A stretch of DNA of 63,991 nt, the filler included, from Rozella allomycis CSF55 (Eukaryota): the NCBI GenBank assembly GCA_000442015.1. It is 14 parts of 14 records of this genome, joined end to end, with 100 filler letters (N's around TTAATTAATTAA, not from the genome) between each part and the next. Parts side by side here need not be neighbours in the genome. Positions count along the whole stretch, not along the records: positions 58,271 to 63,991 come from KE560514.1; 13 more parts are not named here. One strand, written 5' to 3'. Each line of letters opens with the position of its first letter. Position 1 is the stretch's first letter. The position numbers and the translations under genes are program-made. Below the pieces are notes generated by a model. The model searched no databases. It had not been told where the DNA came from and worked only from the letters and a program-made list of their open reading frames with translations. This document shows, piece by piece, positions 3,261-63,991 of this stretch.

Positions 3261-3685
3261 TTATTTAGTTGTGATGACTATTGGATTGGAAATTGTATAG
3301 TCCTTCAACAATTTAAACCAAGTTTCGTTTTCCTTCAACGGTGTTAAAATTGTTTGTTTTATCCATGCAAAACAAACATATTGATCTTCGCCATCCCCTT
3401 GCTGATAAAGCACGGCCCCGAGGCCTCTGCTGGAAGCATCTGTGGCAATAATAAAAGGTTTGTTAAAATCAGGATACTTCAACATTATTTGACTCCAGAG
3501 GACGTCTCTGATTGTGTCATATATTCTTTGAGATTCTTTATTCCAAACCACGTTCATGGCCTTTCGCAATTTATCTAGTGGTTGTGTGAGCATGGAATAA
3601 TTTAGTATCATATCTCTGAAGAAATTAAAGCATGCCAACTGCTGTTCAATCATATGACCATTGACTGGTACTTCCCAGTCATCCA
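3261..3685 (-). mobile_element. Ty3/gypsy LTR retrotransposon pol fragment (RT connection/RNase H)
   Basis: LKYPDFNKPFIIATDASSRGLGAVLYQ; truncated by contig end. Confidence 0.85.
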
Positions 3686-3958
3686 NNNNNNNNNNNNNNN
3701 NNNNNNNNNNNNNNNNNNNNNNNNNNNNNTTAATTAATTAANNNNNNNNNNNNNNNNNNNNNNNNNNNNNNNNNNNNNNNNNNNNCATTTTTTGCCAGCC
3801 CATTGAACTTCGTTAAAGAGCCCAGCCAATGCATCGTTCAAAATTAATTCTTGTCAGCCCAATGTTCTGTACTTTAGAGCCCATTTATCATAGGCGGCTC
3901 TTTTTTCACGCCCTCTAGGAATCAGACTACGAATATCAGGAACATCGTTTTTAATAAA

Positions 3959-5400
3959 TTAAATTCTTTTACGACTAAATGGAGGGTTGAAGTTGCACAA
4001 AGCTAAACCAATTAGAACGTGATGACAACATCTCCAATAAAACCAGCTTCTACAGTCACAGGAGGCTGCTTTAAGATCAAGAACAAAAACAATAGATTTT
4101 TTTTTCTTATTTGTGAGTTTCGTGTTTTGGGATCGAGTTGATTTTTGAACAACATAATCGTTAATACCCTTGATCGCTTTCTTAACAGTATCTTGATCAT
4201 AATTTCGGTACAATAAAAATTCGTTTTTAAAAGTATAATGTAATTCATTCCCAAAGTCCGAAATAACACTTTGCAATCTTTTAAGGAGTTCTACTGCAGA
4301 TAAACGTTTTCGTTTAGTATAATGCCTTTTAAGAGTCGCGTTAAATCTTTCAATAGCATTATTAGTTAAGGCGGTACCAACCTAAAGAAAATAAAAAAAC
4401 GGTTATTACCTGGAGGAACGAGATAAGAAGCCCAATTTGACCAAACTGAATCAGTATTCAACCAAATGTCGGTGAGATAGTCCCAAAAACTATCCAAATT
4501 ATCTTTTTCTTTACACGTGTTTTTCAATTTCTCGTAATATTTTCCTACTCCTTTTCATTACGCGATTTCGAAATTTTCGGAAACAATATCAAAAAATCAT
4601 TTTTCCAAATTTTTTTAAATAAAATTTCATCAAAACCTCCAATTAGCTTTTCAAATTCTTCTTGTCGTTTATGACTAGACAATGCTAGACAAAGTAGATG
4701 AAACTGACCAGACACATCAACCATTCCACGATAACCTGATAGTTGGCGTCATCTAGCTTGTAGGTTTCATCAACACATGTACTTTGCCGTAGGTAGCATT
4801 GAATGCCTGACCCCAGCTTTCAAGTAGCGCAAGCGACGTTATACCAATGAACAAAGGGTCTTCATCGGTTCCAACGCCAAGAACAGCCAATTCGTTTTCC
4901 TCATCAAAGCCAAAAAGCAGGGGTTCGTTTTTTTCGTTTTCCGAAATTTCCTCAGAATTTTCAAATTTTTTGCTTTCAGAAATATCGTTTGTAATGTCGG
5001 AAATTTTGTTTGTGTAGCCTTTTTGGAGCTTTATGCGACTTTTTGCTCCTGAATTTTGTTGACGTGATAAAGATGCAGCTTCAGAAGTCTCATTTATAAA
5101 TTTAGCAATTTCAAGAGGTAGCTTTTCCAAATGTTGCGAAATGAGATTAGTGGCAACCAGATTTAATCTAGTCTTAGACTTTGCATTATCCGTTGGCATA
5201 TGAGACTGAGCATTGTGTGAAAATGCACAATTGTTGCAAACATCGCAAAACAATAATCGGTAACGAGACGGACAGTTTTCACCGCACTTGCACATAAAAT
5301 AGCTATTATGATTTGAAAGGCTTGCTTACTGGCTAAGAGCTGTTTTTTGGGGTTTGTCCTTGCATTCAGGATGCAGTTTACAATAAAATTTCTTTGCACC
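3959..5400 (-). mobile_element. Mutator-like (MULE) transposase pseudogene with SWIM zinc finger
   Basis: SWIM CDC..CCHHV at the C-terminus and TNNAIERFN motif near 4340-4365; several frameshifts. Confidence 0.7.
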
Positions 5401-6122
5401 TCTACATTTGGTCATTGCAATTCCAGACACGAAATACATTTTTAAAGCATGCTCCGCGTCTTTATAGCATGAAAAATTTTCTTTTTTCCTACCCAGTTAA
5501 ATTTTACTTGTAAAAATTTGTGCATATTTTTCTACCATCTTGTGGCTGGGGTGGGCTTGGACGATAAAATAGGATTGCAAGGGTAGGGGTTTTGGTGGCT
5601 TAGAAGTGGGCTCTAACGAATACTCGGGAAATTTCAAAATCGAAAAAGTGGGCTAGGNNNNNNNNNNNNNNNNNNNNNNNNNNNNNNNNNNNNNNNNNNN
5701 NTTAATTAATTAANNNNNNNNNNNNNNNNNNNNNNNNNNNNNNNNNNNNNNNNNNNNCCGAGACCACGGTTGCAAGCCAGAAATATGAGCCAATTGCGCC
5801 ATTATGTGGGGAGGCAGAACGGAATGTACTATCAATAAAGAATCTGTCTCACAATATAGCAATTTGTATGTACTGTGACAGTGTCGTTGAAATATATGAA
5901 CAGGAAATATAGAATCAACTGTAAGTTGAATGTGATTTGACAAATAGGTTCATGCTTTGCTCCCGCTAATTAAACCTGATGCAATTAGGAAGCGTAAAGT
6001 TAAATAAAGATCTATTACATATATCTTTTTAGACCAATGCATTAAGAAGTTTATAGCGTGAGATTAGGTAATATATAGAACACGAGAAATTTAATCTTTT
6101 TATTAATTTAAAACTCAAAATG

Positions 6123-9564: not shown

Positions 9565-10239
9565 ATGCTTTGTGTATGTGACATTCACTTCTTTAACACC
9601 AGGTTACAGCGGAATCCAATTCTGGCGAGTATACAGCAATTCTCGATGTGTTTAAGAGCAATTTTAAGCTAACTGGTTATTCCACTGGTTACAAGTTCTA
9701 CCCAGAACTTTACTGGGTACATATGAATAAGGAGGTTAGAAAATACCAAAGAGTACAGGTAATTGAACTCAATATTGAAAGACTCTAGGCTATCAAAGCC
9801 CTCGAAAGTGCAAACAAGGCTTTAAAAGCCAATTTGAAGAGCAAGGATGAAGGGAGAAAGCGTAATCAGATTTTGTTTGATGTAATTTAGGCTTTTTGTC
9901 GGCCAAAATTGAAGCGATGAATTCAAAAATCGCGATGGCCGACAAATATATTACAAAAATGAAGCAATTGAAAGAAAGAGAAGAAGCCCTTTTGAAAAAG
10001 GAGCTTCTTTTGGAAAATGGGTTGCTGATGGCAAAGTGTGCCCGATCGTACTACCGGAAACGGCTATACGAATATTGTCCAAGTACGAGAAATATTTTGA
10101 ATGAATAAATGATGATCAATACGATGACATGGAGGCATTTGCCTGCTTTGAAGACGTGAAAGCCGCGAATGAAAGATACGAGAAGGTGTCAACGGCTATT
10201 GGACAAGAAAATAAAAAAACGAAGAAAGTCCATCAACAA
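9565..10239 (+). CDS. Hypothetical coiled-coil protein, possibly pseudogene or partial
   Basis: Short exon-like ORFs separated by ~30-nt GT-AG segments; no family recognised. Confidence 0.3.
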
Positions 10240-17740: not shown

Positions 17741-17838
17741 GGTGAATGTACAAGGGTCGTTGGCGCCAATCTGAATTTATGGAAATGAATTACGTAAATT
17801 TCTTAGTTAAAAAGATAGATTTTCTTTTAATTAGTTTA

Positions 17839-30055: not shown

Positions 30056-32225
30056 AGATTTCTTGTTGAAAATGCTGGAGTGAATAATTTTGTGCAAGAA
30101 AGGATTAAAAGAATAGAAGAAAAGGATGAAAAGTTTGTTGAGAGTGTTTTGTATGAAGCTAATTGTGGAGATTTAATAATTGGAGTTTTTGTTGTTGATA
30201 TTTTTAAAGATAAAAGAAATAGTTTGTCTATAAGCCATCCATTTAATCTTTATAATTATTTTGAGATTGAATGTCCCATGGATTCTGATGGCGTCAATTT
30301 GAAACATGGAAGAATTGAAACATTTTTTATTGATTTGAACTTTTATGGGAAAACTAGACTTTTCTTAAAAGAAATTTGTAGAAGAGCGAAATTGGATTGT
30401 TTGTTTTTCTGTTTAGATCCAGAAAAGAAAGCTTATGAGAATAGCATTATGAATAGTTTCACTTGGAGTGTTAAACCCAAGAGATTTATAGCTCATAGTG
30501 ATACACATTCACATCCAGGGTTTTCAGTTAGATTTTTTTCATTGAATGCCAGCCAAGATTTAAAAATAGATATAAATTCAAGCATTGTGTTGGTTGGATG
30601 TTCAGATGTTTCAATTTCAATGTTAGAAACATTTTTATTGGTAATTTGAATGGTTATGGGTTAATTTAGAATAGAAATTACAATTTCAGAAATTTAACAA
30701 TAATTTCACCATTTGGAATTGAAGAGAAACAATGTTATTGGAATGGAGAATATTCTAAAGAGAAATTGGATAGATTAGGGTTATTTCATTCTCTTAATGT
30801 TGTAGCTCAAAATTTAGTTGGAATTGATAGAGATAAAAAGATTGTTTCAACTGAATTTGGATTAAATCTCAATTATGATTATTTAGTTTTAGCTACAGGG
30901 GTTGAATACAATCAATTGGAATTTTTAAAAGATTGTGATTCTCAAAATGGGGTCTTTAATTTCAACAGATCCATTTTAGAAGATTTAACTAGAGAACTTC
31001 AAAGAGAACTTCACCAAGAAGTGGCAATGTAATTTCTGCTTAAATTTAAATAAAGATTCACAAATGACTTGCATGGATTAGCTGCTGTTTCATTGGCTAC
31101 TGATCTTGGCATTCCTTTACAAAAGATTTCTTTAATCTTCAATGAAATAAATCAAAATGAATTTCTTTCAGTATTTCTAATTCTTTCAATAAAAAAGGAA
31201 ATTGAATTATTAAAGCACAATGGACTGAAAATTTACAATTCTAAAATAAAAGAATGCAAATTTCAAGATTCTAGAATGAATTCAATCATTCTAGACAATC
31301 AAGATGAACTACAATGCAATCTATTCATAAATGCATCAAATAAACAACCATCAACCCAAATGATCAATATTTTAAATCAATCTTTTTTAACTGTTGACGC
31401 AAAACTAATAATCGATCAGAATTGTAAAACAAACGATAATTTCATGTAACTTACAAGGGTTTTAAATATAGATACGCTGCTGGCCCATTAACAAGATTCA
31501 GTTCCAAATACAACACTCTATGGGAACACTCATTCTTAAATTCTAGGCAGGTAGGTATCAACTTGGCTAATCGCATCATTCGTTTAACCACTAAAGACAA
31601 TTCAGATCCATTCCTAGACTTTGAATCTTACTACTCTGATCCAATAGTCCTTAATCATTCCCTTCCAAGTAAATTCTTCTCATTTCGTTAATCAGTGCAA
31701 AGAATGCTCCTAGACATTAAAAAACCTCTCATCCCTCATCTGAAACTTGAAACCCCCGTCAAAAAGATTGAATCAAATGCTAATAACCAATACTGCTCTC
31801 TAGAAATCAATGCAAATGGCTACATTCAAAGAATCACAATTTTGGCTTCCGAAGCAAACATGAAAACTAAAAATTACAGCTTTCTGTACAACAAACACCA
31901 CAAGCTACTCCTAAATCTTTTATCTCGGTATGAAGATGGACTTGTTCCAGATTTACTGCAGTAATTGTCTTGTTTCACCTCTATTAGATTCATTAATAAT
32001 CTGGCCAATTACCATTTGTACAGTCAAGATGTTGAAGATTTATATCATGAATTGGGATCTATTATATCTGGTCAGGCTGATAATCCTGTTATTGAGAAAA
32101 TTAGAAACGCGCAAACTATTTCATCCAGGGAAATGCTCGAATTGTTCAATGAATGGCAACAGTTTGGTGTTAGGGAAACATTGCATGATCGGGTTATTGA
32201 ATACGTCAACACAGTAAGCATTTAA
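30056..32225 (+). CDS. CFAP61: Cilia/flagella-associated protein 61, 5' partial
   Basis: IVLVGCSDVSISMLETF, YDYLVLATG, LNQSFLTVDAKLIIDQNCKTND..IYAAGPLTRFS. Confidence 0.8.
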
Positions 32226-32395
32226 TAAAGACACTTCCATTGTGACCATTTTTGGCATTCTTAATTATAAATTTATAATATGGCATACAAATTACAAATA
32301 TCCTCTATGCTATTAGTGTCGAATTCATTTTTACATTGAACAATTATGAGATCATTTAACCGTTAAAATTAGAAATTCGCCGACTGTCATTTTTT

Positions 32396-61707: not shown

Positions 61708-62896
61708 TTATTGTCCCTTCATNNNNNNNNNNNNNNNNNNNNNNNNNNNNNNNNGAAATATGAGTGGTAGTCTTATGTGGACTTGACACGGCAAATCCCA
61801 TATCTCTTGTAGTATGCATGACAATACATTCCTATACATTAAGCGAAATGCTATTACTCTCTTTAAACCACTTTCTTTGTCTTGATGAAGAAGTAAAATA
61901 CCACCTTCCGGCTTTCGGTCGCGAAAAAATATAGATTGATAAAAAAATTCTTTAAAAAGAGTCTCAGACTCGGTAAATTCTAAGTTTCCTCCCAAAACTG
62001 TCTCCGGAATGAACGAAGCAATCCTTGTAAGTATCAAATCCTCGCCTCTTCCGGTTGAACATGAACCAATTGAACGCCTGCCTTTTTGCTGAGACCAGCA
62101 CCCACATCCATACTGAGAAGACTAAGTAATTAATTAATAAATGCAATACTGGGCCAAGTCTGCCGGGTAATTTCAAACTTACTCCACCACTAGAAGTTGC
62201 AGTGACCACAAATCCATTCTCATCTATGGCAATCACACCGATGGTGTCGTACATGTTACCAGAATCATTATTGTCAATAATAGACTTGTATTTTTTAAAT
62301 CTTTTGGTGGAATTTTCAAAATGTTTGGTGGATATTTAAGTATTACCTGTAAAAAGCTCTGAATTTCGCTTGATAGTTTCAATGCCGGTTTGAAGCGCAA
62401 AGTCATCAGCACCTTTACCTACTAAACATCTGAGCTTTATGATTTAAGATAAAAATTACAAAGGCGGTGAGCGGCCATTGGTTCTTGCTTCAGGAGACGA
62501 TGAATAGTCCAATAGAGCTTTGGCTAATTTAATAGGATTTTTAACGACTAGATTTAATTAATTTAAATTATAATTACCGGTCACTGCGCCAACTGAAGCG
62601 AATGGATATCCAGTGGACAATTTCGATGTCATTATTGATGATTCACACTCCACATTTCCATCGGCAGTTCTATTAGATCCTTTACCTGCATTAGTCAATT
62701 CACTGTTCAATTATTCTAACACAATTTAATTTACTTCGAGGTAGCACATGACTTCAACCACTATATTTTCAAGATCACAGTTTTTCTTGACTAAACTCTG
62801 ACCATAGTTTAAAGCATTCTTCATCAAATCTGTATACTCTTTCTCCCTTTTATATGAGAGCTCTCCAGCCCCAATGTGACAAGCTATTACTACCAT
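61708..62896 (-). CDS. TASP1: Threonine aspartase (taspase 1)/type-2 asparaginase; N gap near the 3' end
   Basis: [42 protein letters not shown]; two introns apparently GT-TG. Confidence 0.88.
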
Positions 62897-62917
62897 TGCA
62901 CTCTAGAGTGGCTTAAC

Positions 62918-63881
62918 ATGGGAAAAAGTTCAAAAGACAAGCGCGACATTTATTATAGATTGGCAAAGGAAGAAGGGTGGAGAGCTCGAAGCGCGTTCAA
63001 ACTCTTACAAATAGATGAAGAATTTCAAATTTTCGAGAATGTTAAAAGAGCTGTTGATCTATGTGCGGCACCTGGAAGTTGGTCACAAGTTCTTTCAAAA
63101 AAGTTATAGTAATTTATTTAATTTATTTTGACAGTAACGAAGAAAAACCTGGCGATTCCACCACTATTGTTGCGGTAGATTTACAATCGATGGCTCCATT
63201 ACCCGGCGTGATCCAATTACAGGGCGATATCACAAAAACTTCTACTGCGGAAGCAATAATTTCTCATTTCAAAGGTGAATTGGCGGATCTGGTTGTTTGT
63301 GACGGTGCTCCGTAAGTGTTTTAGACAATACATATTAGTGATGTCACAGGACTCCATGACCTAGACGAGTATATCCAAGCCCAGCTCCTTCTTGCAGCAT
63401 TAAACATAACCACACATGTTTTAAAACCTTCAGGGACTTTTGTCGCGAAAATATTTAGAGGAAAAGATGTAAATATTTTGTTTGCTCAGTTGCGTGTTTT
63501 CTTTAAAGAAGTGTACTGTGCTAAACCTCGAAGTAGTAGAGATTCAAGTATTGGTAACAATATCTATACCGATGTTAAAAAGAATCATTTGTTGTCTGCA
63601 TCGGTTACAATCCTCCTAAAGGCTACAAACCTGTGATGCTAGATCCGTTTCTAGATCCAACTCCTGAGTTTTTTGAACAACTTGAAGGTGTAAATAGAGA
63701 AGTTGTGCCTTTTGTCGCATGTGGGGATCTTAGCTCTTTTGACTCTGACAGAACGTATCCATTGGAAATTGATGGGAAAACTTATGAGTTAAAAGAACCC
63801 TTGCAATCGCCAATAGACGCTCCTTATAAAACAATGTTAGAAATGAAAAGGAACAACAAGTTTAATTTAGAGTCACAATAA
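62918..63881 (+). CDS. TRM7: tRNA (C32/G34) 2'-O-methyltransferase (FTSJ1)
   Basis: [58 protein letters not shown]. Confidence 0.97.
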
Positions 63882-63991
63882 AATCAAGTCTTGTTGTTTA
63901 TGATTAATATTATGTATTATTGTAGATATCTTTAAAAGGGATGGCTTTTAAAAAAGCCGAATTAATTAGATTGTTCGCTTATTTAGCACCA

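Follow-up and report, generated by a model that had tools for sequence, protein, structure and literature searches.

Two ultra-short segments in a taspase-like gene of Rozella allomycis CSF55 begin with GT and end with TG. In our judgement there is about an even chance that both are true spliceosomal introns of a functional taspase gene, and that the only productive 3′ splice site of each is a TG.

A taspase gene with two GT-TG segments

The window, by which we mean the whole stretch of 63,991 nucleotides analysed, consists of at least 16 short contigs (1–19 kb) with a G+C content of about 34% and scattered single Ns. Its spacers are composed of N44, TTAATTAATTAA (a 12-base six-frame stop) and N44, for example at 1091–1190 and 3686–3785. 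Because the joined contigs are separate, neighbourhood across the spacers is meaningless. The contig of interest occupies 61755–63991, and its left edge is a distinct gap of 32 Ns.

A taspase-like gene of the Asparaginase_2 family (Ntn hydrolases) lies on the minus strand at 61755–62896. It starts with the ATG at 62896, and its 3′ end reaches the N32 gap at 61723–61754. The gene contains six intron-like segments of 26–30 nt, of which four end in AG and two in TTG, the latter two both starting with GTAA. All features described in this paragraph are on the minus strand. Exon 1 (62735–62896, 54 codons) runs from the N-terminal ..GAG.. motif to ..YLE and is followed by intron 1 (62708–62734, 27 nt, phase 0), which reads GTAAAT...AATTG and is GT-TG; it carries two in-frame TAA codons and has an A+T content of 81%. 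Exon 2 (62578–62707) bears the ..TNAGKGSN.. motif. Intron 2 (62548–62577) and intron 3 (62430–62459), which flank exon 3 (62460–62547), are both GT-AG introns of 30 nt, in phases 1 and 2, respectively. Exon 4 (62347–62429) ends in ..ELFT. The second GT-TG segment, intron 4 (62317–62346, 30 nt, phase 1), reads GTAATA...TTTTG, with one in-frame TAA and 73% A+T. Exon 5 (62150–62316) encodes D↓T(I/V)G, the site of autocleavage and catalysis, together with the motifs ..SSGG..PGRLG. Intron 5 (62122–62149, 28 nt, GT-AG) changes the frame. Exon 6 (61858–62121) encodes ..YGCGCW.. and ..STGRGE.., and intron 6 (61832–61857, 26 nt, GT-AG) precedes exon 7 (61755–61831), which encodes ..HTT..MGFA.. and is open at the N gap. 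The positions, sequences and GT-TG ends of introns 1 and 4 all agree with the original prediction.

The seven-exon spliced model has 323 codons and is free of stops up to the gap. The first 252 codons (exons 1–5 read through, with X at TAA) scored 89.2 bits against PF01112 (Asparaginase_2), for which the cut-off is 27, and the top match among solved structures was human threonine aspartase 1 (E 1e-16); the taspase identity claimed at the outset is thus confirmed. Exon 5 alone matched positions 169–208 of the PF01112 profile (37.9 bits, E 1.5e-9). The stretch around its nucleophile Thr aligns with ..DSG..D↓TVGAV.. / ..LD↓TVGAVVVD.. of human taspase 1. The family landmarks GAG (N-terminal), TNAGKGSN, the D↓T site, SSGG, PGRLG, YGCGCW, STGRGE and HTT are present. 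Judged from its sequence, the gene is one for a taspase-type Ntn hydrolase, and its product is predicted to cleave itself into alpha and beta subunits and to act as a protease. The gene has the motifs, the D↓T autocleavage site and the overall length of Taspase 1 and other Asparaginase_2 Ntn hydrolases (PF01112; PDB 2a8i). It differs from them in that its structure requires two non-AG acceptors, and in protein searches its closest non-Rozella relatives were about 30–45% identical.

The TG dinucleotides in independent DNA assemblies

Three DNA runs, each from a different study and independently re-assembled, have Logan contigs that span both TG sites. X1 is possibly the source sample, X2 is another sample from another study, and X6 has another organism label and comes from yet another study. 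None of these contigs differed from the window at 62708/62709 or 62317/62318. Elsewhere in the 2237 bases they carried 29 single-base differences, with no insertions or deletions. A second X1 haplotype contig (151 nt, 5 differences) likewise keeps the TG of intron 1. Nothing of X10, a metatranscriptome, aligned here, even at 85% likeness.

The X1 contigs split into two haplotypes at 62657–62807 (5 differences in 151 nt, with depths of 166 and 128), which points to heterozygosity or mixed strains in the X1 sample.

Fragmentation of the assembly and its stray single Ns might raise the suspicion of an assembly or sequencing error, with AG as the true bases. We find this barely credible: three independently re-assembled DNA runs agree at both sites, yet they resolve 29 other differences in 2.2 kb. 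Because three DNA runs carry the same TG, base error is excluded as far as the contigs show. Random base error had been called an improbable explanation beforehand, and the unchanged TG in X1, X2 and X6 upholds that view.

Homology test of intron removal

For the homology test, a profile was made from 105 homologues, namely those 300–440 residues long among 150 family representatives, with the Rozella model left out. Alternative gene models were built from the window and scored against this profile. The model with GT-TG introns at both sites scored 318.3 bits. When intron 1 was replaced by its only short GT-AG option (62747–62703, 45 nt), the score was 295.5 bits, a cost of 23. When intron 4 was replaced by the in-frame GT-AG option (62346–62224, 123 nt), the score was 272.5 bits, a cost of 46, and the catalytic Thr was lost. 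Both replacements together, which is essentially the public model discussed below, gave 249.7 bits.

Other terminal dinucleotides were also considered. Intron 4 scored 298.7 bits as a GC-AG intron of 57 nt and 311.2 bits as an AT-AC intron of 21 nt. An AT-AC reading of the two segments was rejected: the in-frame options (21–45 nt) were at least 7 bits lower or lacked the donor motif. U12-type introns, whether AT-AC or GT-AG, are marked by the extended donor /RTATCCTT together with a branch site resembling TCCTTAAC. The donors found here, GTAAAT and GTAATA, are not of this type.

In a length scan, the donor was fixed and 12 in-frame lengths (12–45 nt, in steps of three) were scored against the profile. 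Intron 1 had a unique maximum of 318.3 bits at 27 nt, followed by 311.4 at 24 nt as the next best and 309.0 at 30 nt. Intron 4 had a unique maximum of 318.3 bits at 30 nt; its next best score was 315.0 at 12 nt, and the neighbouring lengths gave 312.7 (27 nt) and 312.9 (33 nt). Two of the 12 options at intron 1 and one of the 12 at intron 4 end in TG, and the best score fell on a TG-ending length both times. The 5.5-bit peak at intron 4 is weaker evidence than that at intron 1, because the intron 4 boundary sits in a variable linker.

At intron 1, moving the boundaries by one base gave the same score (318.8) and no better dinucleotides, and moving them by five bases to give a TT-AG intron scored 315.0 bits. 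Homology thus fixes the intron 1 boundary only within a few bits, and the canonical GTAAAT donor therefore decides. With these 9 codons removed, the spacing to human taspase 1 is gapless and the LE[D/N]S..TNAG motif is formed; the junction reads LE-NS..TNAG, as the family motif in the original prediction required. Removal of intron 4 gives ..ELFT-E-NSTKRF... From the best match to the protein family we infer that introns 1 and 4 are removed exactly.

Introns 1–4 are all multiples of three and TAA is the only type of stop in frame within them, which would suit a reading in which the segments are not removed and the TAA is read through or recoded. We regard this as very improbable. Retention lowered the family score at all four sites, by 12.5 bits for intron 1 (305.8), 8.1 for the canonical intron 2 (310.2), 12.2 for the canonical intron 3 (306.1) and 4.3 for intron 4 (314.0). 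Because introns 5 and 6 shift the frame, tiny introns must be real in this genome. The standard code, with TAA as stop, gives coherent models across the window, and three to six read-throughs in one mRNA seem implausible. Separate translation of the alpha and beta subunits after the stop in intron 4 was rejected, too: intron 1 would still end the alpha part after 56 codons.

The public gene model

The sole close relative found in protein searches was P0001, deposited as 'N-terminal nucleophile aminohydrolase, partial [Rozella allomycis CSF55]' and 99% identical over the matched stretches, which places the DNA in R. allomycis or a strain nearly identical to it. In P0001, a cryptic GTG donor at 62747 is joined to the AG at +32 of intron 1, and ..MCYLENS is lost. 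The donor of intron 4 is spliced to an AG 123 nt away, and the catalytic region of exon 5 is absent. P0001 also takes a 37-nt version of intron 5, which scores 9.4 bits lower than the 28-nt version, and reads through intron 6, with loss of the conserved C-terminus. Its catalytic exon is missing evidently because the predictor allowed GT-AG introns only.

P0001 has Met and Thr of the X6 type at codons 225 and 249, whereas the window encodes Arg and Pro there, so the two stand for different haplotypes or strains.

If P0001 were right, with GT-AG introns only (45 nt for intron 1 and 123 nt for intron 4), the gene would encode a shorter Ntn-hydrolase-like protein without the nucleophile. This model obeys the GT-AG rule, it is the one deposited, and its version of intron 1 happens to leave a Glu ahead of TNAG at the correct distance. 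It is nonetheless unlikely. It fell 68.6 bits short of the GT-TG model (249.7 versus 318.3), lacks the conserved C-terminus through its reading of intron 6, and drops an open, conserved exon 5 that is itself a PF01112 match at the catalytic site. Its 123-nt intron is outside the set of introns modelled in the window (longest 67 nt in a search that allowed up to 70 nt), and its donor at 62747 is GTG, while of 82 short introns listed all but 2 start with GTA.

For orthologous introns in close relatives, metagenome contigs were scanned; the scan gave 32 loci, all at 23–37% identity to the query and none of them close.

Strain variation, selection and possible decay

Between the window and X6, the taspase gene had 7 differences, all of them exonic, of which 3 were synonymous and 4 nonsynonymous; 0 of 171 intronic bases differed. 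X2 shares one nonsynonymous difference with X6. A further 3 synonymous, 1 nonsynonymous and 1 intronic difference come from the second X1 haplotype. The exon total for the three comparisons was thus 5 nonsynonymous to 6 synonymous in 971 exonic bases, with no stop and no indel. Under uniform mutation, in which 78% of changes alter or stop the protein, the probability of 5 or fewer of 11 is 0.02. With substitutions leaning to the synonymous side in this way, the taspase gene is probably still under selection and does not look neutral, although the numbers are small.

An FtsJ-like methyltransferase gene, named from its translation, lies at 62918–63875 on the plus strand and has three GT-AG introns (26, 27 and 29 nt). 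Its exons showed 1 nonsynonymous and 9 synonymous differences between the window and X6, and its introns differed at 6 of 82 bases. The constraint on the taspase gene is weaker than that on this neighbour (about 4:3 versus 1:9, window versus X6).

These comparisons bear on the main rival explanation, in which splicing of the gene is crippled and the gene is in decay, as a young unitary pseudogene or at best a leaky gene. Two AG acceptors would have mutated to TG, and the introns would be retained or spliced at out-of-frame AGs; no active taspase would be made, and the open exons would reflect recency. We consider decay possible, if rather doubtful. In its favour, Rozella lives as an obligate parasite inside cells and its genome is reduced. 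The relaxed constraint relative to the neighbouring gene points the same way, as does the fact that a single gene holds both lesions whereas the window's other introns, about 105, are GT-AG. A strain variant at 62706 (minus strand), found in X2 and X6, changes the first codon of exon 2 from AAC to AGC (Asn to Ser). It creates a new AG 2 nt past the TG of intron 1 and so adds a canonical, frame-breaking GT-AG intron of 29 nt, the modal length. In human genes, according to one report (PMC2374985), AG>TG mutations activate neighbouring AGs rather than splicing at the TG.

Several observations argue against decay. The TGs predate about 1–3% sequence divergence, because they are common to all haplotypes seen, yet the 971 exonic bases are free of stops and indels and lean to synonymous change (5:6, P = 0.02). 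The catalytic and structural motifs are all intact. Both lesions would also be the same A-to-T change with the terminal G kept, for which we estimate a chance of 1 in 6.

Our preferred reading is a gene that is functional but weakly constrained, with real introns spliced at least partly at TG, and we hold it at roughly even strength for and against. Several findings weigh against it. The AG at 62706 in X2 and X6 does not sit easily with strong selection for TG use, the taspase gene is much less constrained than its FtsJ-like neighbour, human TG sites never act alone, and the window yielded no other homology-supported TG acceptor.

Ordinary introns of the window

An exon chainer was run over the whole 64-kb window, using dynamic programming with codon log-odds, GT-AG introns of at most 70 nt and the standard code. 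The chainer is crude because codon bias is weak. About 101–108 GT-AG introns were modelled across the window (106 in the AG-only run, the longest being 67 nt). In the AG-only models, 72 of 106 introns were 26–29 nt long and 3 of 106 were 30 nt. Among 77 short canonical introns chosen for a GTA start, A was at +4 in 53 and T was at −3 in 53, and their mean A+T content was 73%. No clear branch motif was evident in these 77 introns. All modelled introns with a length divisible by three contained a stop (20 of 20), an ascertainment effect because the chainer cannot call such an intron if it lacks a stop.

Modelled introns skip internal AGs as near as 2–5 nt to the AG used. Together with the very narrow length distribution, these skipped AGs suggest a length or distance rule.

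Introns of about 30 nt are known in R. allomycis (Whelan et al. 2018, PMC6349667), and those of Paramecium and Nyctotherus are about 25 nt long (PMC5014332). Introns 1 and 4 of the taspase gene resemble such ordinary ultra-short introns in their GTAA donor, their length (26–30 nt), their richness in A+T, the T at −3 and the in-frame stop in introns that are multiples of three. They differ from ordinary ultra-short GT-AG introns only in carrying T, not A, at −2, and both end in TG in the three DNA runs.

Search for further TG acceptors

When any acceptor was allowed, the chainer added 6–15 non-AG links, eight of which were inspected. The link at 32214–32361 joins two neighbouring genes, that at 17793 is upstream of a start codon, and those at 4409, 4548 and 4782 all fall within a gene that bears a transposase-like motif, the frame being inconsistent by 1 nt at one of the three; these five were rejected. 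No supported acceptor was found among the remaining three of the eight.

When AG and one other dinucleotide were allowed, TG gave 5 links with a GTA donor (24–32 nt), and 14 control dinucleotides gave 0–4 each. Two of the 5 TG links were the taspase sites; one of the others was upstream of a start codon, one was in the transposase-like gene, where the frame is inconsistent, and one was at 10083. With a flank-score filter, TG gave 7 links versus 16 for AA, 14 for TT and 14 for AT. Outside the taspase gene, there was thus no enrichment of TG over the control dinucleotides in the 64-kb window with either filter. Nor was a further homology-supported TG acceptor found in the window, where about 105 GT-AG introns were modelled.

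The original prediction had envisaged a 'relaxed or regulated class of 3′ splice site'. Such a class is not shown, because there was no further well-supported TG acceptor among the roughly 105 modelled introns, and TG candidates outside the taspase gene were no commoner than controls. Four TG acceptors, paired in two genes, had been proposed; the taspase pair stood, and the other pair was not recovered by the window scans.

The candidate at 10083–10111 (GT..ATG, 29 nt) lies between two overlapping frames on a 1.1-kb contig. At 10040–10239 on the plus strand, open stretches in the same frame are split by one TGA, another long frame overlaps them, and no canonical intron fits. The chain of open reading frames (ORFs) at about 4064–5493 on the minus strand contains a ..TNNAIERFN..LK.. 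motif, which we take to recall MULE-type transposases. At 4409, an obvious 28-nt GT-AG intron leaves the frame one base off, perhaps because the copy is degenerate or the assembly contains an indel. An ORF at 3264–3683 on the minus strand encodes a reverse-transcriptase-associated RNase H (PF17919, E 1e-15) and is a retroelement fragment. When 10 of the 40 orphan ORFs listed outside the chains were compared with Pfam, one had an RNase H retroelement domain and the rest were below the cut-off.

Competing AGs and comparison with human TG sites

Every AG within reach of the two donors breaks the frame. From the donor of intron 1, use of the AGs at +19 and +32 leads to stops after 2 and 0 codons, respectively. 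The one at +32 (62703–62704, minus strand) is the nearest downstream AG, lies 5 nt past the TG and is followed by an immediate TGA. From the donor of intron 4, splicing to the AG at +46 or +62 would miss the frame (remainders of 1 and 2, respectively, on division by three), and the nearest downstream AG is that at +46 (62301–62302, minus strand), 16 nt past the TG. The failure of these AGs, through stops at intron 1 and a wrong frame at intron 4, had been foreseen correctly.

In humans, TG 3′ sites have been validated in 36 genes (Szafranski et al. 2007, PMC2374985). As described there, position −3 is a pyrimidine, position +1 is a purine and an AG lies no more than 28 nt away, and TG serves as an alternative to a nearby AG and never as the sole 3′ site (see also PMC4176328). 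Introns 1 and 4 share these features: −3 is T and +1 is A at both, and the next AG lies 5 nt (intron 1) or 16 nt (intron 4) downstream. The Rozella sites keep the terminal G and have an AG within 28 nt downstream, like the human TG-AG tandems, and they have a GT donor of normal strength, like the U2-type GT-TG introns of human GNAS and TSPYL2 (PMC2374985; Parada et al. 2014, PMC4176328).

There are also differences from the human cases. The Rozella introns are 27–30 nt long, whereas the human GT-TG introns have hundreds of bases. The partner AGs in Rozella break the frame, and TG would be left as the only productive site. Two such sites occur in one gene, and the organism is an early-branching fungal parasite. 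TG use has been validated in humans, whereas in Rozella it is deduced from DNA and homology. In the literature on Rozella introns, spliceosome/U2AF and intron length, supplements aside, we found no report of non-AG acceptors.

How TG might serve as the acceptor

If the two introns are spliced at TG, the acceptor in the RNA would be UUG in place of AG at both. The spliceosome may pair the conserved last G of the intron with its first G and tolerate U at −2. A narrow length rule, with 26–29 nt in 72 of 106 modelled introns, may assist the choice of TG. The AGs 5 and 16 nt downstream may serve early recognition, as in human TG-AG tandems. Splicing at those AGs would yield frame-shifted, prematurely stopped mRNA. 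With AG use non-productive, how much active taspase is made would hinge on the fraction of splicing at TG, and this dependence could reflect plain inefficiency or regulation.

A broader idea is that the Rozella spliceosome for introns of 26–30 nt picks its 3′ site by distance from the 5′ site and by the terminal G, tolerating U at −2, so that TG would be constitutive in roughly 1–2% of introns. We offer this tentatively and think it more probably wrong than right by a good measure. If true, such a distance rule would run contrary to what holds in humans, where TG never stands alone as an acceptor, and public models limited to GT-AG would systematically drop or mangle exons, as with the missing catalytic exon of taspase.

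Implications

If transcripts of the taspase gene prove to be unspliced or mis-spliced, a parasite gene would have been caught early in decay. If, on the other hand, transcripts confirm splicing at TG, this would be the first known case of TG as the sole productive 3′ site, within the limits of our literature check. A single conserved gene would hold two instances of it, in an organism with introns near the physical minimum, and it would offer a natural test case for the choice of site in the second step of splicing under near-fixed intron length. Gene catalogues of Rozella and other organisms with tiny introns, where prediction allows only GT-AG, may undercount intact genes.
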